58,220 nt of DNA from Acidobacteriaceae bacterium (GTDB lineage Bacteria > Acidobacteriota > Terriglobia > Bryobacterales > Bryobacteraceae). The notes below the pieces were generated by a model. The model made no database searches, was not told the DNA's origin, and was given only the letters and a program-made list of their open reading frames with translations. Within the stretch, counting starts at the first letter, position 1; the number at the start of each line of letters is the position of its first letter. The stretch spans positions 1-58,220 of the forward strand of contig JAFARV010000676.1 in NCBI GenBank assembly GCA_019245255.1. Direction: 5' to 3'. Positions 4,677 to 52,661 of this stretch are shown piece after piece. The position numbers and the translations under genes were made by a program.

Positions 4677-5213
4677 ATGAGCACGGGAGCCGTCCTCATG
4701 ACCGTCGATGAATTCTTGCGCCTGCCGGAACCACAGACTGGGCACTACGAACTGCATCACGGGGACGTGGTTCTCATCGCACCGCCTAAGTGGGGTCACG
4801 AAGAAATTCAGGAGCGCGTGAGAGAACTCCTGAAGCGCACGATTGGAGACCGTGGAAGGGTCAGGGTCGAGATGGCGTTCCGCCCGGCACCTGAATACGA
4901 AGTGTGGAGGGCAGATGTTGGAGTCGTACGAAAAGAACGGGCCGATGCCACCCCGCCCGATACGTATTTGCAAGGAGCGCCGGATCTGGTCGTAGAGGTT
5001 TTATCCCCCAGCAACACAGCACAAGAGATCAACGACAAAATGGCCGTATGTCTCGACAACGGTTGTTCCAGCTTCTGGGTGGCCGACGACAACCTTAAAG
5101 AGGTGAAGGTCACCGAGGGCGATATCACGAGACGCTACACGGGCACGGCGACGATTGCGAGCGATTTGCTCGGCGGAAGTATCAGAGTCGACGACATCTT
5201 CCAGGGTTCGTGA
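4677..5213 (+). CDS. Uma2-family endonuclease, copy 2
   Basis: 178 aa. MTVDEFLRLPE and APDLVVEVLSPSN motifs. Confidence 0.8.
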   Translation: MSTGAVLMTVDEFLRLPEPQTGHYELHHGDVVLIAPPKWGHEEIQERVRELLKRTIGDRGRVRVEMAFRPAPEYEVWRADVGVVRKERADATPPDTYLQGAPDLVVEVLSPSNTAQEINDKMAVCLDNGCSSFWVADDNLKEVKVTEGDITRRYTGTATIASDLLGGSIRVDDIFQGS

Positions 5214-9944: not shown

Positions 9945-11515
9945 CCGCTGTGACCGATCCCCAACAGGTCGAAATGATTGATGGGATCACCACCCGAACA
10001 TATATACCGGTTCCAAGTTGCTGGGTCACCCGGATTTATCTTCGACGTTGGTGTCGCCTGATATGGATCCTGGGTCATGAAGCGAACAATCCCAGAGCTG
10101 TAATACCGCTGATAAGCATAGTCCAGTCCCGTTGCCGAATCCCGCGTGTAAGTCGCGAACTTTTCCTGATCATTCGAGGGATTAGCCGGATTCGGGTTGT
10201 AGCGGTTTTTCCCTTTAGGGGAAGTACTTGGCTCGGGATTGCAAGCGGTCTTCCGGCGTGAGCAGGCGGCCGGCGAACCAGATATCGTGGTTGTGCAACC
10301 GACTGTTACCGTTCCGAATTCTGGATCGAGTAAACAGCCAGTTTCTTGCCATCAATCCCGTAGAAGTAGAGCTGCTCATTCGAGTAAGTCTGCGTTGAGG
10401 CGTTGTAAGTCCCTTGATAGATCCGCTGGTTTGACGAATCGTAGCCATACAGCGCCTGATTGCCACCTGGCGCAGGCACGGCAACAGTCATCCGATTCTC
10501 GATGTCGTAGCTGTACGCAGCGGCGAAGGAGCCCGTTCCGAGAGCCGTCAGGTTGCCGTTGTTGTCGTACTGCGCTCCGTTGGCGTTCAGGCGGTTAGTT
10601 GTCGGATCGGTACTCAGCGCGGTATTGCTGGGTGCGGCTGCGCCGATTTTCTGGATCAGATTTCCGAAACCGTCATAGCTGAACTGCTGACTCCAGTTAC
10701 CGGTCGGGTCGCCGGTGCCGTTTGCCTGAATCAACCGACTGAGCGAGTCGTACGAATAGGTAATGGTTTCCCCGCTCACCACGTCCGTTTGCGACAGAAT
10801 GCGCCCGTTGTTCTGCGTCGCCGAGTAGTTGTACTTGAAGTGAACATTGGCGCCCGACACCAACTCGGTCATCTGCAGATTCGCATTGTAGGAACGCGTC
10901 TCGGTGAAGGCTGCCGCGTTAAGTTGGAGCATCTGATTTGCCGGACCGTAACTGACCCCGCTCACCAGCGTTTGACTGTTCGGACCGTTCATGGTGTTCA
11001 GCCGGTACATGGCATCGTATCCATAAGTGTATTGCGGGCCGGCCGTGGTCACCGCCCCGTTCTGCCACTGCGCAAACGGGTACTGCACGCCGGTGACGGC
11101 GCCGGTGCTGTCGTAGGCGTAGTCGGCTTCGAGATTGGGCGAGTACGAGCCCAACGCCGGGCCCGAAACATTCAGCCGCTTGGCCGTAACGCCGCCCGCG
11201 GCATGATAGCTGTAGAGTTCCGCAAACTGCAGGCTGTGCGGGCCTGAATACTGCACCTCAGACACGCGTCCCGCGGTGTTCGATGAGAACCCGCCGTTCG
11301 TGCCGTCGTAGGTGAGCGTGGTCCGCTGCGTCACATCCTCATTGAATGTGCCGTTCACCAGTTTTCCGCGCGAGATCTGGATCAGCCGGCCATAGATGTC
11401 ATAGCTGTATTGAACCTGCTGCGACTTCGCATCGGTCTTAGTCGCGAGCGTACCGTCGCTGTTATAGGTGTAGCTGGTGGCGATGTTTCCGGCGTAGCTG
11501 CGCTGCTTACCAGAT
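9945..11515 (-). pseudogene. RHS/YD-repeat core fragment, 5'-truncated with at least two frameshifts
   Basis: YD repeats (YSYDIYGRL, YGYDAMYRL, YSYDSLSRL, FSYDGFGNL, YSYDIENRM). Frame changes near 10310 and 10215. Core end is ...QEKFATYTRDSATGLDYAYQRYYSSGIVRFMTQDPY...WNRYICSGGDPINHFDLLG. No N-terminal domain is present. Confidence 0.75.
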
Positions 11516-11761
11516 GACCCGAAGACCGCGGTATTTCTTGAACTCGCGGTCCGTCGCCACGCGCGGAACATCCTCCTTAAGCGCTGTTGCAATGAGCAGC
11601 CGGTCGAATGGGTCGTTGTGATGCCGTGGAAGCCCGAATGTGCGATATGCGTGAAAGGCTGTTAAGGGAACGATCGTCAGATGCAGATCCCGGCGGCGAC
11701 ATACAATGCGGTCGTGTCCAGGAGAATGCGCCGCATCAATAACGGCCAGCGATAAAGTCAT
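11507..11761 (-). pseudogene. vapC: PIN-domain VapC remnant (C-terminal two-thirds only)
   Basis: 84 aa ending HHNDPFDRLLIATALKEDVPRVATDREFKKY. The N-terminal acidic catalytic residues are missing, and a stop lies 5 codons upstream of the Met. Confidence 0.6.
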
Positions 11762-12152: not shown

Positions 12153-13262
12153 ATGTTTAAGAAGCTCTGGGACGCAGCTCTGAAGAGAATGCACAGGTGG
12201 GCGAGCTGTGAACTTGCGGGCCTCAATCGGTTGCCTCCCACGCTTGTTAACGAAAACCAACCTGCGAACACTATCGCGGGTGAACCCTCGGATTATGAGC
12301 AGCGGATTGAGCAGGAAAAGGCTAGTTATAGAGACTGTCTGAATGTGCATGACCTCCCAAGGATCGCGGCGTATTGGCATGAGCGCCACCTTCTGCCTAA
12401 GTTTCAACACTTCGGCATTACTCATCCGGGCGAAATCTTTGAAGTGGAAATATCGAAACGATGCGCCTCAAACGCAAATGTTAATCAGGTCCTGAGCATC
12501 GGATCGGGCAATTGCGATCTCGAGGTAAAGCTCGCAGCATTTCTGAAGAGTCACGGACATTCGAACTTTTTAATCGAGTGTCTGGATCTAAATCCGGCTA
12601 TGCTGGCGCGTGGTGCGGTTTTAGCTGGAGAGTACAACGTCTCTGAGCACATTCGACTTACAGAATGTGACTTCAACGATTGGCAGCCCGAACAGGAATA
12701 CGATGTCATTGTTGCGAGCCAATCTCTTCACCATGTCGTGAAATTGGAAGCTCTACTCGATGGAGCGAAGCGTTCTCTGAAGCACGATGGCTATTTCTTG
12801 GTTTCGGACATGATAGGCCGTAATGGTCATATGCGCTGGCCGGAGGCTCTGGAGATCGTCCACGAATTTTGGCGGCAACTCCCCGGCGGCTACAGATATA
12901 ATCACCAGCTTCGCCGTTATGAGGATCTCTTTGAGAATTGGGATTGCTCACAGGAGGGTTTCGAAGGAATACGCTCGCAGGATATACTTCCTCTTTTGAT
13001 CGAGCGCTTTCAATTTGAAATGTTTCTTGCGTTCGGAAATGTGATCGATCCTTTTGTTGACCGCTCATTCGGCCACAATTTCCGGCCGGAGACGGACTGG
13101 GACCGGAATTTTATCGATCGCGTTAACGAGCGAGACGAAGCGGAGTTGACGTCGGGTACAATCAAGCCGACCCATCTTGTCGCGGTTATGCGCCGGTCGG
13201 TTGTAGGGCCGATGAGGTACTTACCTCCGATGACGCCTGAGTTCGCACTGCGACGCACCTGA
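12153..13262 (+). CDS. class I SAM-dependent methyltransferase
   Basis: 369 aa. Motif I-like VLSIGSGNCDLE and post-I/II-like DVIVASQSLHHV. Confidence 0.75.
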   Translation: MFKKLWDAALKRMHRWASCELAGLNRLPPTLVNENQPANTIAGEPSDYEQRIEQEKASYRDCLNVHDLPRIAAYWHERHLLPKFQHFGITHPGEIFEVEISKRCASNANVNQVLSIGSGNCDLEVKLAAFLKSHGHSNFLIECLDLNPAMLARGAVLAGEYNVSEHIRLTECDFNDWQPEQEYDVIVASQSLHHVVKLEALLDGAKRSLKHDGYFLVSDMIGRNGHMRWPEALEIVHEFWRQLPGGYRYNHQLRRYEDLFENWDCSQEGFEGIRSQDILPLLIERFQFEMFLAFGNVIDPFVDRSFGHNFRPETDWDRNFIDRVNERDEAELTSGTIKPTHLVAVMRRSVVGPMRYLPPMTPEFALRRT

Positions 13263-15510: not shown

Positions 15511-15969
15511 ATGCCCACTTGCCAGACCAAATTCCATGGCCCGATCGCTTACGAGCCGGATCAGGTGCTGAAAGTGCCTGCAGGACTGTTTGGGTTTGCG
15601 GGGGAGACGGAATTTCTTCTGCTCGAACTGCCGTCTGCGAGACCGATCGCATTTGTGCAAAGCGTTCACACGCCGGCGCTGTGTTTCATTAGCCTGCCGG
15701 CGCAAGTGGTAGATCCCGCTTACCGTTTGGCACTCAAAGCCGAAGATATCAAGGCGCTGGGATACACCCCGGATGCGCCTCCGGCCATGGGCAAAGAGGT
15801 TCTTTGCCTCGCGCTGCTGATGGTGGAGCCGGAACAGCCGACTACTGCCAACCTGCTCGCGCCCCTGATCATCGATATTGCCCGCCACCGCGGACGTCAG
15901 GTCATCGTAAACGCGCCCTACTCGCATCGGAGTCCGGTGGCGCCGGAAGGATTGAAGAGGGCGTGTTAA
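15511..15969 (+). CDS. fliW: flagellar assembly factor FliW
   Basis: 152 aa. FHGPIAYEPDQVLKVPAGLFGF...NLLAPLIID pattern. Directly upstream of csrA and overlapping it. Confidence 0.85.
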   Translation: MPTCQTKFHGPIAYEPDQVLKVPAGLFGFAGETEFLLLELPSARPIAFVQSVHTPALCFISLPAQVVDPAYRLALKAEDIKALGYTPDAPPAMGKEVLCLALLMVEPEQPTTANLLAPLIIDIARHRGRQVIVNAPYSHRSPVAPEGLKRAC

Positions 15970-16253
15970 TCAGCCGCAGAAGAGAAGGTGAGGGATTGCT
16001 GATCGGCGATGGCGTCGAAATCCGTGTCATCAGCGTGCGAAGGAAGAAAGTGATCCTCGGTATCCTTGCGCCCCGCGAGGTGAAGATCACGCCTACCAAG
16101 CTGAGCGATGCCGAGCTGGCAAACACAATCGCTGCGGCGAATTCCGTCAGTCTGTCCGATCTGCTGCTGCAGCCTCCGGGGGAAGGCGAGCATGTTCTTT
16201 TTCTCTTGCAATCGGCTGAAGCGGCCGATAAGAAATCTGGGAAACCAGAATGA
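15963..16253 (+). CDS. csrA: carbon storage regulator CsrA, with a roughly 45-aa C-terminal extension
   Basis: GTG at 15963 gives (M)LISRRREGEGLLIGDGVEIRVISVRRKKVILGILAPREVKI. Overlaps the fliW stop and the fliD start (ATGA). Confidence 0.8.
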   Translation: MLISRRREGEGLLIGDGVEIRVISVRRKKVILGILAPREVKITPTKLSDAELANTIAAANSVSLSDLLLQPPGEGEHVLFLLQSAEAADKKSGKPE

Positions 16254-22702: not shown

Positions 22703-25700
22703 TTAGTGCTGCAGGAGCGAGAGCAACTGCTGCGGAGCGGAGTTGGCCTGCGCGAGAGCGGCGGTACCGGCCTGGACCAGGATCTGGGCCCGGCTGAGAT
22801 TGGCTGCTTCCTGGGCGAGGTTGGCGTCGCGGATCTGCGATTCAGATGCCGCTTCGTTGGTGACCTGCGAAGTTGCCAGGCTGACGGCGTAATTCAGGAG
22901 GTTTTCTCCCTTACCGACAGCGGCCTGAGCGGTACCGAGGTTTTGGACCGCAGACGCCAGTGCGTTGACCGCCGCCTGAGCGCCGGGGATGCTATCGATA
23001 GCGGCGTTTGCACCGGTACCGTTTTGCGCCGCGGTGCTGACGCCACCGGTTGGAGCTGCGATGCCCGTTCCGTCGGCCATCGAGCTGACCTCCACCTTGA
23101 AGTTCTGAGTGGTGCTCTGGAACTTGATGGATTGCGTGCCGTTCAGATTGTCTTCCTTTACTGCATACACGCTTTGCAATGTGGAATCGTTTGACTGCTG
23201 TAAGGCGGTATTGATTGCGTTGATCGCGGAGTCGATATTCGCGCCATTCGTCGAGGTCGAGTTGTTCTGGAGCGAGATGGAGAGCGAGTGAGCTCCACCA
23301 CTGTTGTCGTTAGCGGTAATCGAGACGGACTGGCTGTCACCACCATTCGCGAGAGCCGAGAAGTTCATCGCGCTGGAGGTATAGGCGCCTTGGGAGTCGA
23401 CACGGCCCACCGTGGGCGCTGCGCTAACTGTAGCCCCGGCGTAGCTGCCGCCCCCGATTCCGAAACCGAGATTCGCGGTGCCACTACCACCAACACGGAA
23501 GTTACTGTTGTTTGTGGACGTGAGGGTTAGGGCGTTGCCTCCAGTGAGCGAGGCTTTTAGTCCTGCGCCGCTCAAAGTGGAGTTCGCGGCAACGGCGGCA
23601 TTGATCTGGTTCTCTGCGTCCGTTGCAATGGCCGAAGCCGAGTTGCCCTGTCCGCTTTGACCCACCGTCAAGCCGAGGGTAGAAAGTGTTGCTGTGCTGG
23701 AACCGTCAATCGTTACCGCGGAGGCGGCTCCGGTAGTGTTGGATACGAGTTGGAGTGCAGAACTCGCGCCCGAACCGACAATGCTGGCGGTTACGCCAAT
23801 GCCCGCTGTTCCGTTAATCGCACTCACAACACTGGCTAAAGAGGTAGCGCCGGCGCCGAAAGTTACGGTTTGTGGTGAGGAAGCACCGTCAACATCCAGA
23901 ACGAGTGTCTTGGTATTCAATCCAGCGAGTGCGCCGGTACCGACGGCAGAGCCGGTCACGTAACCGGAAGCATTCTTCAGGTTCACGTTAATGGCTGTGG
24001 TTGCGCCGCCGTTCAGAGAAACATTCAGCGTGCCGCTTTGTCCGAGCGCAGATGTAGTCGGGATCGCACCGTTTCCTGTGATGCTCGAGTATTGGAACGC
24101 ATTGGCTGAGGAGGTATTGGTTGTGAATGAACCCAGGCCGAGCACATTGTTTGTGTCGCCGGTCACCGCAACATTAAACTGCTCGCCCTTACTATCGGTG
24201 AACACCAGATTCTGTCCATTGCTGCTGGTAGTAACCGAAACGCCGGCCGCACTGAGCTGACTATTGCCATGTACTTTCGAAGCGAGGTCCGCGAGAACAT
24301 CCGATACCTTGGTAGACCCGGCTACCGTCGGATTTAGCGAAAGCGTAACGGGACTGGCCATGCCAGCGCCCGAGAACTGCACCTGCATGTTGTCGCTGCT
24401 GGTAACCACTGCGGTGGTCGAGGTCCCGGCAGTGAGACCCAGTGTCGAGTAGGCGCTGCTGCTGGTGGGAGTGTTCAGAGCTAGAGATTGCCCGGCCGTG
24501 TTGGCGGTCAGGATCAGGTGTCCGGAAGTATCCAGGCTGGCGGTTGCGGCAACAGAGTTCGCCTGCAACTGCGTATTGATCTGACTGACCATCTGCGAGG
24601 CAGTGTAGGTGCCCGCAGCAAGACTGATCTCTGTGGCCGAGCCGCTCCCAACTTGAACGTTGAGATCTGTGTTCACCGCGGCGCCGTCAGCGGTTTCTCC
24701 GCCCGAAAAGCCGGTTGCTCCGGCCAGCAATTCCGCACTGGTGCCGGTTGATTCGACAGTGATGTTCGAAGCACTACCCGTATTGGCGGTCGTGTCCGTC
24801 AGCACAAGTTTCTGATTCGGACCGCTGCCCGTAATGCTCGCTGTTACGCCGATGCTAGCGCCATTGATGGCGGTTTGGATACCGCTGAGTGAATTGGTGC
24901 CCTGGTTGATTGTGACGGTATGGTTCGTGCCATCAACGTTGAGGACCAACGAATCATTCACTGCGGCAGTTCCATTTGTGCTCGTCCCGCCGGATAACAG
25001 TGTTCTAACGTCCGAGCTCGAGGTGGCGTCAATTGCGACGGCGGAGCTGGCACCCGGCGTGTTCGACGTAATTACCAAGTGGCCGCTGCTGACCGAGGCC
25101 GTTACGCCGACGCCGGCAGTATTATTGATGGCGGTCATCAAGCCATTGACGGTTGTGGGAGCGCTTGCCCAACTGACGGTCTTTTGCGTGCCATTTACGT
25201 CGAGGACCAGCGTATCCGAATTCTGTAGATTTGCGCCCGATACATTGCCATCTGTCAAAGCGACCGAGAAGTTTCCCGCGGTGGCCGCGGTACCCAGACC
25301 GTGGCCGCCATTCAGCGATGCGATATAGGCATCGGCGACTGTGTTCGGCGCCGTCAGGACTGCCTTTGCTGAGCCACCGGCTGAGATTGTTGTAGATGAA
25401 CCGAGCACGGCGCCGACGATGGTTGAGTTATTGGCTGTCGCGCTGGCGCCAGTTACTGTCGTGTTCAGAGAAGCGCCGGTTGATCCGACGGAGAAGTTGC
25501 CGAGCAGCGCATTCGCCATTTGATCACCCGCTTGCACCTGGAATGCTGCGTTGCTCGAGCTGAAGGCGAGCTGCTGACGGCCCTGCGCGTCGGTTACTAC
25601 CGAAGCCGAGATGTTGGCATTCTTGAATGCCGTCGCATACTGAGTCGAGCCATTGCCCGCGCTTTGAATCGCGGAGTTGATGGCGTTCGCCAGTGTCGTG

Positions 25701-26437
25701 GTATCGGTGACGCCGCTAAGGTTGACGGAGATGTTGACTTTGTTGGCATCGCCGAAGCCCGGACCCGAAAAACTAAATGAGGTAAAGCCTGAAGTTGCTT
25801 CGGAATTGGCATTTGTAGTATTTGCCAGAATGTCAGCAACGCTCGTCGTAGCCGAGCCGGTTCCGATATCTGTCCCGGCCTTGCCGGTGGCCTGCACACC
25901 CGCGAGCCCGAGGCTCTGCGCGTCGACGGCCGACTTGCTCAAATCAAGGTTGATGCTTCCGTTCACGCTGGCAGCTGCGCTGGTCGCGCCTTTGCCGCCG
26001 CCGATAAATACCGACAGACTCTGCGCATACTGGCCGCCCTGGTTCATACCGATCGACTGTGCCTGGCGCGTGATTTCGGAAACGACGCTCTGAAATTCAT
26101 CGTTCAGCGTGTTGCGGTCGCCGGTGAAGGTGCCGGAGGCAGATTCAGTGGCGAGCGTACGTGCGCGATCGAGCAGCGTACCGATGTTGTTCATACCGCT
26201 ATCGATCGTCTGGAGCGTCGCCAAGCCGTTGTTGGCGTTCTGAATACCCTGATTCAGCACTGCTTCGTCGGAACGGAGTCCGTTGGCAACCGCAAGACCC
26301 GCGGCATCGTCGCCGGAGTTTACGATGCGCAGACCCGAAGTAACTTCGTTAATCGTCTGCGACTGGAATTGGCTGCTCTTGGTCAGGTAATTCTGAGCCT
26401 CGAGCGAAGAAATATTTGTATTAATTGAAAACGACAT
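22703..26437 (-). CDS. fliC: giant flagellin (1244 aa)
   Basis: ATG at 26437 preceded by AGGAG. N-terminus MSFSINTNISSLEAQNYL...GLRIVNSGDDAAGLAV. C-terminus IRDANLAQEAANLSRAQILVQAGTAALAQANSAPQQLLSLLQH. About 1000 aa of Cys-free Ser/Thr/Ala/Gly-rich repeats lie between. Confidence 0.92.
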   Translation of the reverse strand: MSFSINTNISSLEAQNYLTKSSQFQSQTINEVTSGLRIVNSGDDAAGLAVANGLRSDEAVLNQGIQNANNGLATLQTIDSGMNNIGTLLDRARTLATESASGTFTGDRNTLNDEFQSVVSEITRQAQSIGMNQGGQYAQSLSVFIGGGKGATSAAASVNGSINLDLSKSAVDAQSLGLAGVQATGKAGTDIGTGSATTSVADILANTTNANSEATSGFTSFSFSGPGFGDANKVNISVNLSGVTDTTTLANAINSAIQSAGNGSTQYATAFKNANISASVVTDAQGRQQLAFSSSNAAFQVQAGDQMANALLGNFSVGSTGASLNTTVTGASATANNSTIVGAVLGSSTTISAGGSAKAVLTAPNTVADAYIASLNGGHGLGTAATAGNFSVALTDGNVSGANLQNSDTLVLDVNGTQKTVSWASAPTTVNGLMTAINNTAGVGVTASVSSGHLVITSNTPGASSAVAIDATSSSDVRTLLSGGTSTNGTAAVNDSLVLNVDGTNHTVTINQGTNSLSGIQTAINGASIGVTASITGSGPNQKLVLTDTTANTGSASNITVESTGTSAELLAGATGFSGGETADGAAVNTDLNVQVGSGSATEISLAAGTYTASQMVSQINTQLQANSVAATASLDTSGHLILTANTAGQSLALNTPTSSSAYSTLGLTAGTSTTAVVTSSDNMQVQFSGAGMASPVTLSLNPTVAGSTKVSDVLADLASKVHGNSQLSAAGVSVTTSSNGQNLVFTDSKGEQFNVAVTGDTNNVLGLGSFTTNTSSANAFQYSSITGNGAIPTTSALGQSGTLNVSLNGGATTAINVNLKNASGYVTGSAVGTGALAGLNTKTLVLDVDGASSPQTVTFGAGATSLASVVSAINGTAGIGVTASIVGSGASSALQLVSNTTGAASAVTIDGSSTATLSTLGLTVGQSGQGNSASAIATDAENQINAAVAANSTLSGAGLKASLTGGNALTLTSTNNSNFRVGGSGTANLGFGIGGGSYAGATVSAAPTVGRVDSQGAYTSSAMNFSALANGGDSQSVSITANDNSGGAHSLSISLQNNSTSTNGANIDSAINAINTALQQSNDSTLQSVYAVKEDNLNGTQSIKFQSTTQNFKVEVSSMADGTGIAAPTGGVSTAAQNGTGANAAIDSIPGAQAAVNALASAVQNLGTAQAAVGKGENLLNYAVSLATSQVTNEAASESQIRDANLAQEAANLSRAQILVQAGTAALAQANSAPQQLLSLLQH

Positions 26438-26505
26438 TCTGTCTCCTGGAAGCCGGTTCGAGCCGGGATTCATTCCCAGCCAGCGGAAACTCCGCTCATG
26501 CTTCT

Positions 26506-26542
26506 TCCGCTGTTCTTATCGGCGGCTCCAGAAAGTTTGTTC
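26506..26542 (-). promoter_or_regulatory. sigma-28 (FliA)-type promoter of fliC
   Basis: Minus strand reads ACAAACtttctggagccGCCGATAAgaacagcgga. The -10 octamer is perfect, about 80 nt upstream of the ATG. The 18-mer gccgataagaacagcgga is identical to the one at 28290-28307. Confidence 0.7.
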
Positions 26543-26577
26543 TGAAATGTTAAAAAAATCGCGGCGGGCTGATGAGT

Positions 26578-28245
26578 TTATGCGCTTTTTTCTTCGCTTA
26601 GACCAATTACTTGGCGGTCTAGGGGAGATTCCGATAGAAGATCGCGCTCCGCTTCGCAGGTTGCGATTCCCGATCCGGAGCTGGAACGAATCTCGAGCTC
26701 CAGATTCCCATCGCCGTCCTCCCAGGTGAGGCGGTAATGATGCAGGAGGGCGGAATAGATTTGACAACAGGCTTGAGCGAAGTTAACTTGCTCGTCCACA
26801 GCCTGGAAAAAGCCATTCAGCTTGTGAACGCGATGCCTGAGCGTGTGCCACGGCGGAGACACAGCAATGACGTGAACGGTGGCACGCAAATTCGCTCCAA
26901 GATCAAAGAGCGCTTCCATTACATGTAATTTGGGGCTGGCGCCCACTACGATGAGATGCAGATTGGGCGACAGGAATTCGACATCCGGCAGAGCGCGTTT
27001 GAGGATCTCTGCGCGCGAGGCGCTGCCGGAGGAAGCGCACATCAACTGTTCTTCGGGGGTAACCTGCGTCGCGGTCAACAGGTCTTTTGGTCTTTGCAGG
27101 CGGGAGCAGGATTGGATCGCCACATCGAAGTCAGTGCTTAGAGTAGCGCTCGGTTCCGCCGGCAGACACAACAGGAATTTGGCGGTAATGGGATTGTCGA
27201 AGGTGATTTCTTCAACCGTGCATTGCTTTATGTACGTGCCGCCGGCCTTCAAGAAGAATCTGGTGGGAGGAATATTCCGGACTGTTTCGAGCGATTCGTT
27301 GTGAACGGTAGCGATGAAGGACCGGGGCTGTGGTTCCGATGCCTGGCTCAGAATCGCTACTTGAAGCGGACTCACCTCACGGGCGGACTTAAGTGCCTTC
27401 TTCATCTCACCCAACCCGCGCAGAGCCTGCCTGCGAACCAGGTCGTCCGTATCGCTCAATTGTCTGGCCAGAATTGGGGCAAAGCGAGGATCGCCTGTTC
27501 TACCCATAACCCAGGCGCCGGTGTTGCGAAATTCGGGCCGCGCGTCCTGCGCCATGTCCTGTATTAACGAGATTGAAGCTGTATCGCCGCGGCGATATAG
27601 TCCGAGGACAGCATTTCCGGCAACACGATTGTTTTCGTCCGTGACAGCACTATGCAGCAGCGGGGTCACGAAGGTTTCTTCGACTTCACACAGGCTTTCG
27701 ATCATGTTGGCTCGAACGCGCGCGTCCGCTTCCTGGCCGAGGTCCTTAACCCAGTGCAGATGGGGCCTTCTACGGGCGATGAAGAGCGCGGCTTTGGACC
27801 GAAGCTTGGGATCGGGATGCCGAATAAACTTTGAGACGCTGAGGACCAGCCGGTCGCCTTCTGAGATGGCGTCAAGAATATCGAGGGCAATCAAAACTGG
27901 TTCGTGAAAGCGGTTGCTAAGCTCTTCATCCCTTAGACATTCGAGCAACATGGCATCGAAGCGCGGGTTCAGGTCTAAGAACTTTCTGGCGAGTGTAAGA
28001 GCTTCCTGTTTGGATTGCAGATAACTGTCGAGCAGGATCCCGATGAGATCGTGAATTTCTACGAGGCTTGCGACATATTTCAACGACTTCGACGGCGCAC
28101 GCGTCAGCAGTGCACTGCGAACTTCAATGAGGAACTGTTGAGCACCGAGAGATGTCTTCAGGGCCGCGAGTTCTCTACGGGCACGCACATCGTCGTTGTC
28201 ATAGCGATCGAGCAGGGAGTCGATGTTGTGCTCTTGGTGTGCCAT
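26578..28245 (-). CDS. HEAT-repeat protein with a C-terminal alpha/beta domain
   Basis: 555 aa. Repeated helical units (DPKLRSKAALFIARR, DARVRANMIESL, NRVAGNAVLGLYRRGD, RNTGAWVMGRTGDPRFAPILARQLSD, LVRRQALRGLGEM). C-terminal strand-helix alternation (HLIVVGASPKLHVMEALFD). Confidence 0.75.
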   Translation of the reverse strand: MAHQEHNIDSLLDRYDNDDVRARRELAALKTSLGAQQFLIEVRSALLTRAPSKSLKYVASLVEIHDLIGILLDSYLQSKQEALTLARKFLDLNPRFDAMLLECLRDEELSNRFHEPVLIALDILDAISEGDRLVLSVSKFIRHPDPKLRSKAALFIARRRPHLHWVKDLGQEADARVRANMIESLCEVEETFVTPLLHSAVTDENNRVAGNAVLGLYRRGDTASISLIQDMAQDARPEFRNTGAWVMGRTGDPRFAPILARQLSDTDDLVRRQALRGLGEMKKALKSAREVSPLQVAILSQASEPQPRSFIATVHNESLETVRNIPPTRFFLKAGGTYIKQCTVEEITFDNPITAKFLLCLPAEPSATLSTDFDVAIQSCSRLQRPKDLLTATQVTPEEQLMCASSGSASRAEILKRALPDVEFLSPNLHLIVVGASPKLHVMEALFDLGANLRATVHVIAVSPPWHTLRHRVHKLNGFFQAVDEQVNFAQACCQIYSALLHHYRLTWEDGDGNLELEIRSSSGSGIATCEAERDLLSESPLDRQVIGLSEEKSA

Positions 28246-28289
28246 CAGAAGTTTCTTAACTTCGCCTTACGCCCGATACTGGATGGGGC

Positions 28290-28326
28290 TCCGCTGTTCT
28301 TATCGGCTGGAGGAGAGACTTTGTGG
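28290..28326 (-). promoter_or_regulatory. sigma-28-type promoter of the HEAT-repeat gene
   Basis: Minus strand reads ACAAAGtctctcctccaGCCGATAAgaacagcgga. The -10 lies about 50 nt upstream of the ATG at 28245. Confidence 0.65.
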
Positions 28327-28402
28327 AGGGATTGTGAGGGAGGGCTTGCGAGCGGTTGCGCGGTGGGATTGAAGGTTACTCGGGCTTTGGCCCTGAGAAG
28401 TT

Positions 28403-28840
28403 TTATGTAAGGTCCGTTTTCTGTGTTCTGGATGGGAGTGGGGTTGCCTTTCTGGACTTGAGAAAGGCGACTACAATGCTCAAGACTGTCCCACCCGTGA
28501 TAACTGCTCCCGTCACAATCCGGGCAGTACTTGCTGTCGTGTATGCCAACCACAGACCACCGCCAATTGCTGTAATCGCAACCGCAAATGCAAAAATTTG
28601 CGCCCATCCTTGCAGACGCTGTTCCCGCTTCTGCAAGTCGTAATCGTAGTTCTGGCGGTTGGCTTCCAACTGCCTTTTGTGTTGCAGTTGGGCTACGACC
28701 TCTTGAATCATGATCGCGGCCGTTCCAGGCGCGATCTCATCGTAGTGCCGCAGCAGTTCGGCTTTTGGCAGCAGGTCAGGAATTGTGCCCGGTTGTGAGG
28801 ATGCCGGTGTTTGGACTTCTTTATTGCTGGGAGTGGCCAT
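28403..28840 (-). CDS. DUF2335-family membrane protein
   Basis: 145 aa. LLRHYDEIAPGTAAIMIQEVVAQLQHKRQLE followed by two TM helices, the typical DUF2335 layout. Confidence 0.7.
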   Translation of the reverse strand: MATPSNKEVQTPASSQPGTIPDLLPKAELLRHYDEIAPGTAAIMIQEVVAQLQHKRQLEANRQNYDYDLQKREQRLQGWAQIFAFAVAITAIGGGLWLAYTTASTARIVTGAVITGGTVLSIVVAFLKSRKATPLPSRTQKTDLT

Positions 28841-40463: not shown

Positions 40464-40636
40464 ATACCGCCTCTTATCTAGTATATACAATGTATCTACC
40501 TACGTCAATGTGAGACTTTTATTGCGGCGGCTTGCCAATGCTGATTTCGCCCACTGGAGAACGTTGGCGATGGTTTCTAAACTGCGACTGACAATCTGCC
40601 TGCGCCTAAAAGCTACGATTGAAGGAAGGAACGGAT

Positions 40637-40882
40637 ATGGCAACGTTGGATAGCTACATCGACTGGACGAGCTGCGAGCTGGTCGAGCGCGTTCCGGGCA
40701 AGGTCTCCGGCCGCCCGATCGTGCGCGGAACCCGCATTCTCGCGGATACGATCGCGCAGGACGCTGAGTTGGGTTCGTCCCTGGAAGAAATTCATGACAA
40801 TTATCCCGACCTTCCCATGAGCGCCATTCAGCAGCTTATTTCCTTTGCCCGCTCACACCGCGTCGAACAGCGCGTGCCGTGA
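40637..40882 (+). CDS. DUF433-domain protein (antitoxin-like partner of DUF5615)
   Basis: ATG at 40637 behind GAAGGAAGGA. VPGKVSGRPIVRGTRILADTI is typical of DUF433. Confidence 0.8.
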   Translation: MATLDSYIDWTSCELVERVPGKVSGRPIVRGTRILADTIAQDAELGSSLEEIHDNYPDLPMSAIQQLISFARSHRVEQRVP

Positions 40883-41220
40883 GGGTTTTGCTTGACCACA
40901 ATTTGCCGCATAGCCTGCGGACTAGTCTCGGCAAACTCTGCGATCACGAAATCTTCACCGCTTCCTATATGGGTTGGGGTGACCTCAGAAACAGCGAATT
41001 GCTAACGGCGACTGAGCAGAAAGGTTTCGAGGTTTTCGTTACCGGCGATCAATCCCTTGTGCATGAGCAGAACCTCAGGGGCCGGCGTTTGGCTGTTATC
41101 GCTTTATCGGCAAACAACTGGCCAATTATAAAGAACCGTGTCCCAGATATTCTTGCCGCGATCGATGCCGCCACACCCGGTTCTTTTAACATGCTCAATT
41201 GCGGCGAGTTCAGGCGCTAG
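40879..41220 (+). CDS. DUF5615-family PIN-like protein
   Basis: 113 aa. MRVLLDHNLPHSLRTSL...FEVFVTGDQSL. GTG start overlaps the DUF433 stop. Confidence 0.8.
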   Translation: MRVLLDHNLPHSLRTSLGKLCDHEIFTASYMGWGDLRNSELLTATEQKGFEVFVTGDQSLVHEQNLRGRRLAVIALSANNWPIIKNRVPDILAAIDAATPGSFNMLNCGEFRR

Positions 41221-49212: not shown

Positions 49213-49959
49213 ATGACGGACGTTCGCTCGCGGGTGGAAGTAAAAAAGGCGGAATTGGATCGTTTGCGGCCACTCGCGAGACGGGGACTTGCGGCGTTGG
49301 CCGCGTGGTATGACGTGGAACTGACCTACACGTCAAACGCGATCGAAGGCAATACACTGACACGCGTCGAAACTGCTGAGGTAATCGAGAAGGGCCTTAC
49401 CATAGGCGGTAAGCCGCTCAAGGATCATCTCGAGGCGATTGGGCATAAAGAGGCGCTCAGGTTTGTGCGCGACCTGGCGCAGAGGGAAGATCCGGTGCGT
49501 GAATCAGATGTGCGGCAAATTCACGCGCTGATCCTGATGTCGGCGGACCCATCTGAAGCTGGTAAGTATTCCGATCACGACCGCGTCATCAAAGGCTCGC
49601 CTCTAGTGTTGCCCTCGGCATGGGAGCTGAAGCCGCTGATGAGCGATTTCGGCGTGTGGCTTTCGGCCGTTGAGCCGGGTCCGGAAGCGGCATTTGATGC
49701 GCACGCGAAACTCGTTACGATTCATCCGTTCAGCGATGGGAATGGCCGTACGGCCAGGCTGCTGATGAACCTGCTGCTGTTGCGTGCCGGATATGCACCC
49801 GTTGTCATTGGGCCGGAGCATCGGATCCGATATCTGGACAGTCTGCAGGCGCTACAGCTTCACGGTCACGAAGAGCCGTATAAGCAGTTTCTGTACGAGC
49901 GTCTGGAATCCGGTTTGGACGAGCACCTACGGAGACTACACCCGGATCTTGAGGCATGA
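49213..49959 (+). CDS. Fic-family protein (class II, N-terminal inhibitory helix)
   Basis: 248 aa. Fic motif HPFSDGNGRTARLL. An alpha-inh-type motif SNAIEGN lies upstream. Confidence 0.9.
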   Translation: MTDVRSRVEVKKAELDRLRPLARRGLAALAAWYDVELTYTSNAIEGNTLTRVETAEVIEKGLTIGGKPLKDHLEAIGHKEALRFVRDLAQREDPVRESDVRQIHALILMSADPSEAGKYSDHDRVIKGSPLVLPSAWELKPLMSDFGVWLSAVEPGPEAAFDAHAKLVTIHPFSDGNGRTARLLMNLLLLRAGYAPVVIGPEHRIRYLDSLQALQLHGHEEPYKQFLYERLESGLDEHLRRLHPDLEA

Positions 49960-52597: not shown

Positions 52598-52661
52598 GCA
52601 TATAAGTAGCGCCGGAACCGGAGAATACTTCTCAAGTCGCCGATAAGAAAGCCAAGAGATC

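Follow-up and report, generated by a model that had tools for sequence, protein, structure and literature searches.

A shared 18-nucleotide core in two probable FliA-type promoters, upstream of a flagellin gene and a HEAT-repeat gene of an Acidobacteriota contig

The locus discussed here raises a simple question: why are a flagellin gene (fliC) and the neighbouring gene of a HEAT-repeat protein preceded by the same 18 nucleotides (nt), and what would this sequence do? Both genes lie on contig JAFARV010000676.1 of the assembly GCA_019245255.1 (an uncultured Acidobacteriaceae bacterium), a metagenomic contig whose entire length of 58,220 bp was analysed and is called the window in the following. 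From the comparison of sequences, both sites are, with good confidence, late flagellar promoters of the FliA (sigma-28) type; the element is ordinary in kind, as it falls in the known sigma-28 class, and its -35/-10 spacing is unusually short.

As for the repeat itself, GCCGATAAGAACAGCGGA has two exact sites in the window, both on the minus strand, at 26506-26523 (copy 1) and 28290-28307 (copy 2), just where the preliminary description of this DNA had placed an identical 18-mer; the count stays at two when up to three mismatches are allowed, with 0.09 sites expected by chance, and none of 100 shuffled windows gave two matches. Both copies are intergenic and in sense orientation to the downstream gene: copy 1 is within the 140-nt gap between the HEAT gene (26578..28245, minus strand; 555 amino acids; Pfam HEAT_2, 2.3e-17) and the flagellin gene (22703..26437, minus strand; Pfam Flagellin_N, 6.9e-22, and Flagellin_C, 3e-14), and copy 2 within the 157-nt gap 5' of the HEAT gene. 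In copy 1, the flagellin ATG (26437) is 86 nt from the beginning of the octamer GCCGATAA and 68 nt from the end of the 18-mer; in copy 2 the corresponding distances to the HEAT ATG (28245) are 62 and 44 nt, so that the approximate values of 80 and 50 nt given earlier were fair. The flagellin distances are counted from the start codon that agrees with the family (protein beginning MSFSINTN..., AGGAG 5 nt before the codon), the longest open reading frame starting at 26473.

Regarding a chance origin, or a repeat unrelated to promoters such as a fragment of a repeat element or of coding sequence, the probability left is negligible. The octamer does occur inside genes, encoding Ala-Asp-Lys in csrA and at the start of the PilZ gene; nevertheless, the excess of exact 18-mers over expectation, their intergenic and sense placement, the bipartite shape of their similarity, the retention of the box in orthologous promoters, and the lack of any Rfam family in the region and of other copies of the repeat effectively refute this explanation.

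The octamer is what connects the repeat to flagellar transcription. The sigma-28 consensus of Escherichia coli is TAAAGTTT-n11-GCCGATAA (PMC2859248), and in the fliC open complex of Pseudomonas aeruginosa GCCGATAA occupies positions -15 to -8, with the -35 element TCTAAAG at -36 to -30 (PMC12784957); the window copies match this -10 element (core CGA) at 8 of 8 positions, and the earlier naming of the box as the FliA/SigD -10 consensus agrees with both sources. Exact GCCGATAA is found at 11 sites of the window against 1.81 expected, and the 11-mer GCCGATAAGAA is found at four sites against 0.00 expected; all four are in sense orientation and directly 5' of late flagellar genes, namely fliC, the HEAT gene, fliD and fliS. 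The fliD site (16224..16234, plus strand) begins 26 nt before the ATG, with 15 nt between, and lies inside the 3' end of csrA; the fliS site (52639..52649, plus strand) begins 23 nt before the ATG, with 12 nt between, and has a weak -35-like GAATACTT upstream at a spacing of 8 nt (N8). These two sites share with the 18-mer pair GCCGATAAGAA alone. In either intergenic region of the pair, no sigma-70-like promoter was predicted on the minus strand, and no clear terminator was predicted between the HEAT gene and fliC.

The seven further exact copies of GCCGATAA (14191, 26000, 38103, 41104, 51928, 54690 and 57257) are mostly intragenic: they are found in flgH, in flgF and at the opening codons of the PilZ gene, and motA and fliC contain them in antisense; a -35-like sequence accompanies none of the seven. 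Coding constraints explain why relatives keep the copy antisense to fliC, as GCCGATGA. The putative promoter box before fliD is itself embedded in the csrA coding sequence, in its last codons (Ala-Asp-Lys-Lys), 18 nt from the fliD ATG.

If the published register of -15 to -8 is applied to the box, the 18-mer spans -15 to +3 in both copies, and the G of GGA becomes the predicted +1; the transcription starts would then be at 26508 for fliC and at 28292 for the HEAT gene (both minus strand), with 5' untranslated regions of 71 and 47 nt, respectively. In this register the shared part would indeed run into the transcript start and include a GGA, as the first description had proposed. The promoter would be composed of the -35-like CAAA(G/C)T(C/T)T, an 8-bp spacer, an extended -10 element with GCCGATAA and the discriminator GAACAGC (7 nt), transcription starting at the first G of GGA, and the 18-mer would correspond roughly to the promoter DNA that is bound and unwound by RNA polymerase. 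FliA-RNA polymerase would use both sites: one promoter would yield the flagellin mRNA with its 71-nt structured leader, and the other the mRNA of a HEAT-repeat protein belonging to the flagellar regulon.

The distribution of identity between the two copies is informative in this respect. In a repeat search, 26506-26540 and 28290-28324 came out as a direct repeat of 35 nt with 80% identity; counting positions from the G of GCCGATAA, the -35-like block (-17 to -7) is identical at 9 of 11 positions, the spacer (-6 to -1) at 1 of 6, the 18-mer at all 18, and the next ten bases at 1 of 10, while upstream of -17 the two copies have no similarity. Judged from this alignment, a bipartite and sharply bounded identity is the pattern of promoters under selection, whereas a recent duplication would be uniform. 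Differences have saturated the spacer, which makes a recent copy unlikely; convergence would imply function, and so would an old copy that selection has preserved. The identity past the -10 box would thus reflect a constraint shared by the DNA of the two open complexes; that it stops exactly at +3 suggests that the constraint acts on promoter DNA rather than on RNA.

The same profile bears on the possibility that the HEAT promoter was copied from the fliC promoter, by local duplication or short-tract gene conversion; the identity past the -10 box would then record history and not function, with both promoters still of the sigma-28 type. The segment GAACAGCGGA (-7 to +3) is absent from HEAT orthologs elsewhere and present in fliC orthologs, so the fliC version looks ancestral; in addition, both window promoters share the unusual N8, unlike the fliC promoters of relatives, and the two sites are only 1.8 kb apart. 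However, a recent copy should be uniform, and a random-like 6-nt spacer (1/6) between segments of 18/18 and 9/11 is not; an older copy would need selection on the 18-mer, which leads again to functional constraint. Copying thus appears rather unlikely, though it has a real share of the probability.

As for the -35 side, the upstream blocks at -17 to -7 are ACAAACTTTCT in the flagellin promoter (26530..26540, minus strand), which contains CAAACTTT at 8 nt from GCCGATAA and resembles TAAAGTTT, and ACAAAGTCTCT in the HEAT promoter (28314..28324, minus strand), which contains CAAAGTCT at the same 8 nt. Their distance from the box is equal in the two copies, of the form CAAA-N12-GCCGATAA; this is the ACAAA block that had been noticed with a gap of 12 nt. 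Compared with the consensus n11, the -35-like CAAA(G/C)T(C/T)T is 3 bp nearer to the -10 element.

To place this value among relatives (loci numbered with the prefix L), each candidate promoter was scored against TAAAGTTT at every spacing, the spacing being measured between the 8-mers. The best -35-like sequences were at N8 for the window promoters of fliC (CAAACTTT), the HEAT gene (CAAAGTCT) and fliS (GAATACTT, weak); at N9 for L064 and L066 (CAAAGTTT); at N10 for L065 (GAAACTTT); at N11 for L107b (TAAAGTTT itself), L094 fliD (TAAACTTT), L089 (TCAAGTTC), L006 (TAAAGGTA) and L045a (TAAAGCTG); and at N12 for L031 (TAAAGCTT), L015 (TAAAGCTC) and L004 (TCAAGTTC). The result is a series with N8 in the window, N9-N10 in close relatives and the canonical N11-12 in distant ones. 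The 3-bp deficit noted in the preliminary description is consequently real and specific to this clade. For comparison, the sigma-28 spacer is described as conserved neither in sequence nor in length in the structural study (PMC12784957). In the distant relative L107, two tandem flagellin genes (2313 and 3423) each have their own box, followed 8-9 nt later by AGCGGAA, and the second of them has a perfect E. coli-type TAAAGTTT-N11-ACCGATAA.

The displacement of the upstream block also invites an explanation by an operator, in which GAACAGCGGA, the ACAAA..TCT block, or both would bind a regulator that co-controls the two genes besides sigma-28. It would account for a block that stands at a non-canonical -35 distance and drifts among relatives, and for identity in positions that sigma-28 is not known to read. 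Against it, neither segment shows the symmetry of inverted or direct repeats that is typical of operators, the pair has no linked regulator gene, and the fliS and fliD sites share GCCGATAAGAA alone, which leaves an operator improbable.

Turning to the flagellin promoters of relatives, 52 upstream regions were compared, 49 from metagenome loci and three from L005, L057 and L058. CGATA was found within 150 nt upstream of the flagellin ATG in 28 of them and near -185 in 8 more, and the box in these related promoters has the form CGATA(A/T). In the closest clade, the flagellin promoters of L061-63, L064 and L066 have CCGATAAGAACAGCGGAAGA (-14 to +6) unchanged, and around it divergence or insertions are seen both on the -35 side and within the leader. 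L065 and L005 have other discriminators (GACCCTC and GGACCTT, respectively) and keep G(G)AAGA at the predicted start.

The sigma factor itself is encoded by relatives: L057 and L058 have FliA in their flagellar cluster, the L058 protein scoring 231.5 bits against TIGR02479, for which the cutoff is 189.6. The annotated L058 cluster reads flhA-flhF-fliA-fliY/N-...-flgK-flgL-fliM-HEAT-fliW-csrA-fliC, and in L057, examined by tblastn, the core order is the same, with fliA upstream of HEAT-fliW-fliC-fliD.

Concerning the HEAT-repeat protein, homologs are found in Acidobacteriota, in Bryobacteraceae or Solibacter, the nearest being about 50% identical. A scan of genome contigs with the single protein found none, and an alignment-based scan retrieved 60 genome loci; in 25 of these 60, the HEAT-family gene is closely preceded by a sense-strand CCGATA, with about 6 expected by chance in the 24.9 kb searched and 5 found in antisense. 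In HEAT orthologs elsewhere the box is 7-23 nt from the start codon. In sum, sigma-28 exists in the lineage, the box is kept at orthologous flagellin promoters, and the HEAT family appears to behave as a member of the flagellar regulon in the phylum. In L006, L008, L012, L031, L033, L045, L053, L111 and others the box stands 7-10 nt before the start codon, from which leaderless HEAT mRNAs, or mRNAs with a leader of 1-3 nt, are predicted. A conserved HEAT-fliC operon was considered and discarded, as most HEAT-family loci do not adjoin flagellin. An open reading frame at 28245-28607, over the HEAT promoter and ending at the HEAT ATG, was judged spurious on reading the sequence, because it is mostly an out-of-frame overlap with the DUF2335 gene (28403-28840) and the rest is C-rich and intergenic-looking.

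The flagellin leader (26438..26507, minus strand) deserves attention on its own account. It contains two hairpins, one local (AGCGGAGUUUCCGCU, 26482-26496) and one conserved (GCUGGGAAUGAAUCCCGGC, 26462-26480), as well as a CUUCC at 26448-26452, able to base-pair with GGAAG at the 5' end, and the AGGAG Shine-Dalgarno sequence (26443-26447), all on the minus strand; GGA occurs at +1 to +3 and at +16 to +18. In six related flagellin leaders the conserved hairpin and CUUCCAGGAG do not vary, and the CUUCC beside the Shine-Dalgarno sequence is invariant; no covariation supporting either the hairpin or the GGAAG-CUUCC pairing was seen among these six, and the fliC and HEAT leaders fold no better than shuffled sequences (z of -1.0 and -0.6). 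The conserved hairpin is about 25 nt 5' of the Shine-Dalgarno sequence across these Acidobacteriota flagellin leaders; its loop is AGGA, of the classic CsrA type, in L084, L092, L095, L099 and L106, and AUGA in the window and its closest relatives.

Such a leader is of interest because CsrA represses the sigma-28-transcribed flagellin mRNA through GGA and FliW relieves this repression in Campylobacter jejuni and Bacillus subtilis (PMC4894983; see also PMC6529632); in C. jejuni, CsrA binds GGA motifs of the sigma-28-transcribed flaA leader (PMC4894983). The window encodes fliW (15511-15969, plus strand; Pfam FliW, 3.8e-20) and csrA (about 15969-16253, plus strand; Pfam CsrA, 6.6e-11), a pair that adjoins fliD. 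By analogy, control of the fliC leader as a whole by CsrA is likely; FliW and CsrA, whose genes are 10 kb away, would most likely act on this leader, with the AGGAG Shine-Dalgarno sequence and the upstream GGA motifs as candidate contacts. The csrA product, of 94 amino acids in total, is prolonged at its C-terminus by a long tail, and the csrA stop codon and the fliD ATG overlap.

A different matter is whether the shared sequence past the box works at the level of RNA, as an mRNA 5' end that offers a GGA contact to CsrA, or that pairs or stabilises, and places both genes under common FliW-CsrA control. The presence of fliW and csrA in the window, the binding of GGA in the C. jejuni flaA leader (PMC4894983), the ability of the 5' GGAAG to pair with the invariant CUUCC, and the recurrence of AGCGGA(A) near the box, at variable distance, in the flagellin promoters of the distant relatives L058 and L107 (twice) and in the HEAT homolog L048 all speak for it. 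On the other hand, from the predicted start the RNA would retain just GGA (3 nt) of the 10 shared nt, the identity ending at +3, and GCGGA is not of the ANGGA-in-a-loop type; the HEAT leader (47 nt) has no partner for its 5' end, no GGA near the start codon and no obvious Shine-Dalgarno sequence. Given the lack of covariation, folds like those of shuffled sequences and a HEAT leader sharing just three bases, an RNA role of the extension is unlikely and ranks below an explanation at the level of DNA. A 5'-terminal stem CAGCGG/CCGCUG in the fliC leader was also tried; it needs a start 3-5 nt further upstream and has no partner in the HEAT leader, and was retained as a minor possibility only.

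Several observations weigh against the assignment of the two sites to FliA. Regarding the sigma factor, fliA was not found in the annotated parts of the 58-kb window. As for the -35 region, the canonical slot (TAAA(GTTT), 15 bp from GCCGATAA, n11) is unmatched, reading GAAC in the fliC promoter and CCAC in the HEAT promoter; L061 has a convincing -35 match at no spacing, and the distance of the -35-like block drifts over N8, N9 and N10 among close relatives. In the E. coli aer promoter, a T-to-C change at the first -35 position lowers activity about 10-fold (PMC2859248); the shift of 3 bp, together with an initial C comparable to the one responsible for this loss, means that the block may be no contact of sigma-28 region 4 at all. 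As for the extension, L065, the closest flagellin relative, has the other discriminator given above, and the nearest HEAT orthologs (L110 and L111) have GCCGATGA or GCCGAGGA without GAACAGCGGA, the box being followed by GCCGATGAgagcaacaggagagttggaATG in L110, GCCGATGAgataggtATG in L111a and GCCGAGGAgatagttacgagATG in L111b; taken together, these cases indicate that the extension is not universally required.

The transcript data belong to the same side of the balance. No RNA runs holding the window were found. Peat metatranscriptomes hold the flagellin of the relative L058, which is therefore expressed there; the assembled L058 RNA contigs begin at 12819, 12876, 12877 and 12891, with the predicted start at 12856/7, and contig ends of this kind cannot map 5' ends. 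One of them begins 5' of the box, so that the start is neither confirmed nor refuted; as a whole, these contigs are compatible with a start near the box. The fliW-csrA interval of L058 has no coverage in them.

With these points taken into account, the assignment to FliA-type late flagellar promoters is best placed by comparison with known systems. Like the class 3 FliA promoters of E. coli and Salmonella, the window sites have a -10 element matching at 8/8 and a related -35-like AAA(G/C)T(T/C)T, they stand before flagellin, fliD and fliS, and fliA is in the same flagellar cluster in the relatives of the window; unlike them, the spacer is 8 bp instead of 11, the -35-like sequence begins with C, and all four copies have the box in its longer form, GCCGATAAGAA. 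In the fliC open complex of P. aeruginosa (PMC12784957), GCCGATAA likewise stands before flagellin, in the register that puts the window start at the G of GGA; the -35 element TCTAAAG is there at -36 to -30, whereas the CAAA of the window would be at -31 to -28. As for Phag of B. subtilis (SigD) and flaA of C. jejuni, the likeness comprises a sigma-28-type promoter, a structured 5' untranslated region of 45-90 nt, a GGA-bearing Shine-Dalgarno region and fliW-csrA in the flagellar region; the differences are a hairpin loop of AUGA and not ANGGA (AGGA in more distant relatives) and, in the window, a second gene, not a flagellin, that shares the promoter core.

A more far-reaching version can be formulated, in which the lineage uses a re-geometrised sigma-28 promoter, with the -35 element 3 bp closer or dispensable, the -10 element lengthened to GCCGATAAGAA, and a constraint on both discriminator and GGA start, and in which the HEAT family would be an unrecognised phylum-wide member of the sigma-28 regulon, often leaderless or nearly so. 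Such a package is possible but, as a whole, has the odds clearly against it.

Regarding the meaning of these results, the literature search that was made returned no study of how flagellar genes are regulated in Acidobacteriota. What is known of the logic of flagellar transcription is unchanged; GCCGATAAGAA gives a concrete promoter motif with which the late flagellar regulon may be defined in such genomes, and the sites suggest that a conserved HEAT-repeat protein is likely to be associated with the flagellum. Of more interest, as by-products, are the HEAT family as a candidate conserved target of sigma-28, whose box often precedes the start codon by 7-10 nt, and a natural range of -35/-10 spacings, from N8 to N12, which bears on how strictly region 4 of sigma-28 must be placed.

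As for the proteins encoded by the two genes, the AlphaFold2 model of the HEAT protein (predicted local distance difference test score of 89.5) is confident and has a HEAT solenoid at residues 1-290, a beta-rich segment read as a beta-sandwich at 295-360 and an alpha/beta domain at 367-530; Cys360 and Cys380 are conserved. Its fold matches in the PDB are all HEAT/ARM-repeat proteins, its C-terminal half has no sequence match in the PDB, and for this half the fold and sequence searches gave just generic HEAT matches. The flagellin is a 'giant' of 1244 amino acids, in which the helical domains at both termini are normal and the central region comprises about 1000 amino acids, relatives ranging from about 260 amino acids upwards.

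Finally, the source of the contig is reflected in a rock-metagenome run that holds 99% of the sampled words of the window. Its flagellar genes are arranged in blocks: fliOPQR-flhB; motA, fliW, csrA, fliD and motB; flagellin and the HEAT gene; flgBC-fliEFGHIJ; the PilZ gene, an SLT gene and fliS; and flgJ-like, flgI, flgH, flgA, flgG and flgF. Among these blocks are small mobile or toxin-antitoxin-like genes (142-711, 774-1148, 4677-5213, 40619-41220 and 49213-49959), which comprise Uma2 (twice), Fic/DOC (twice) and a DUF433/DUF5615 pair, and an RHS-repeat gene is found at 10306-11592.

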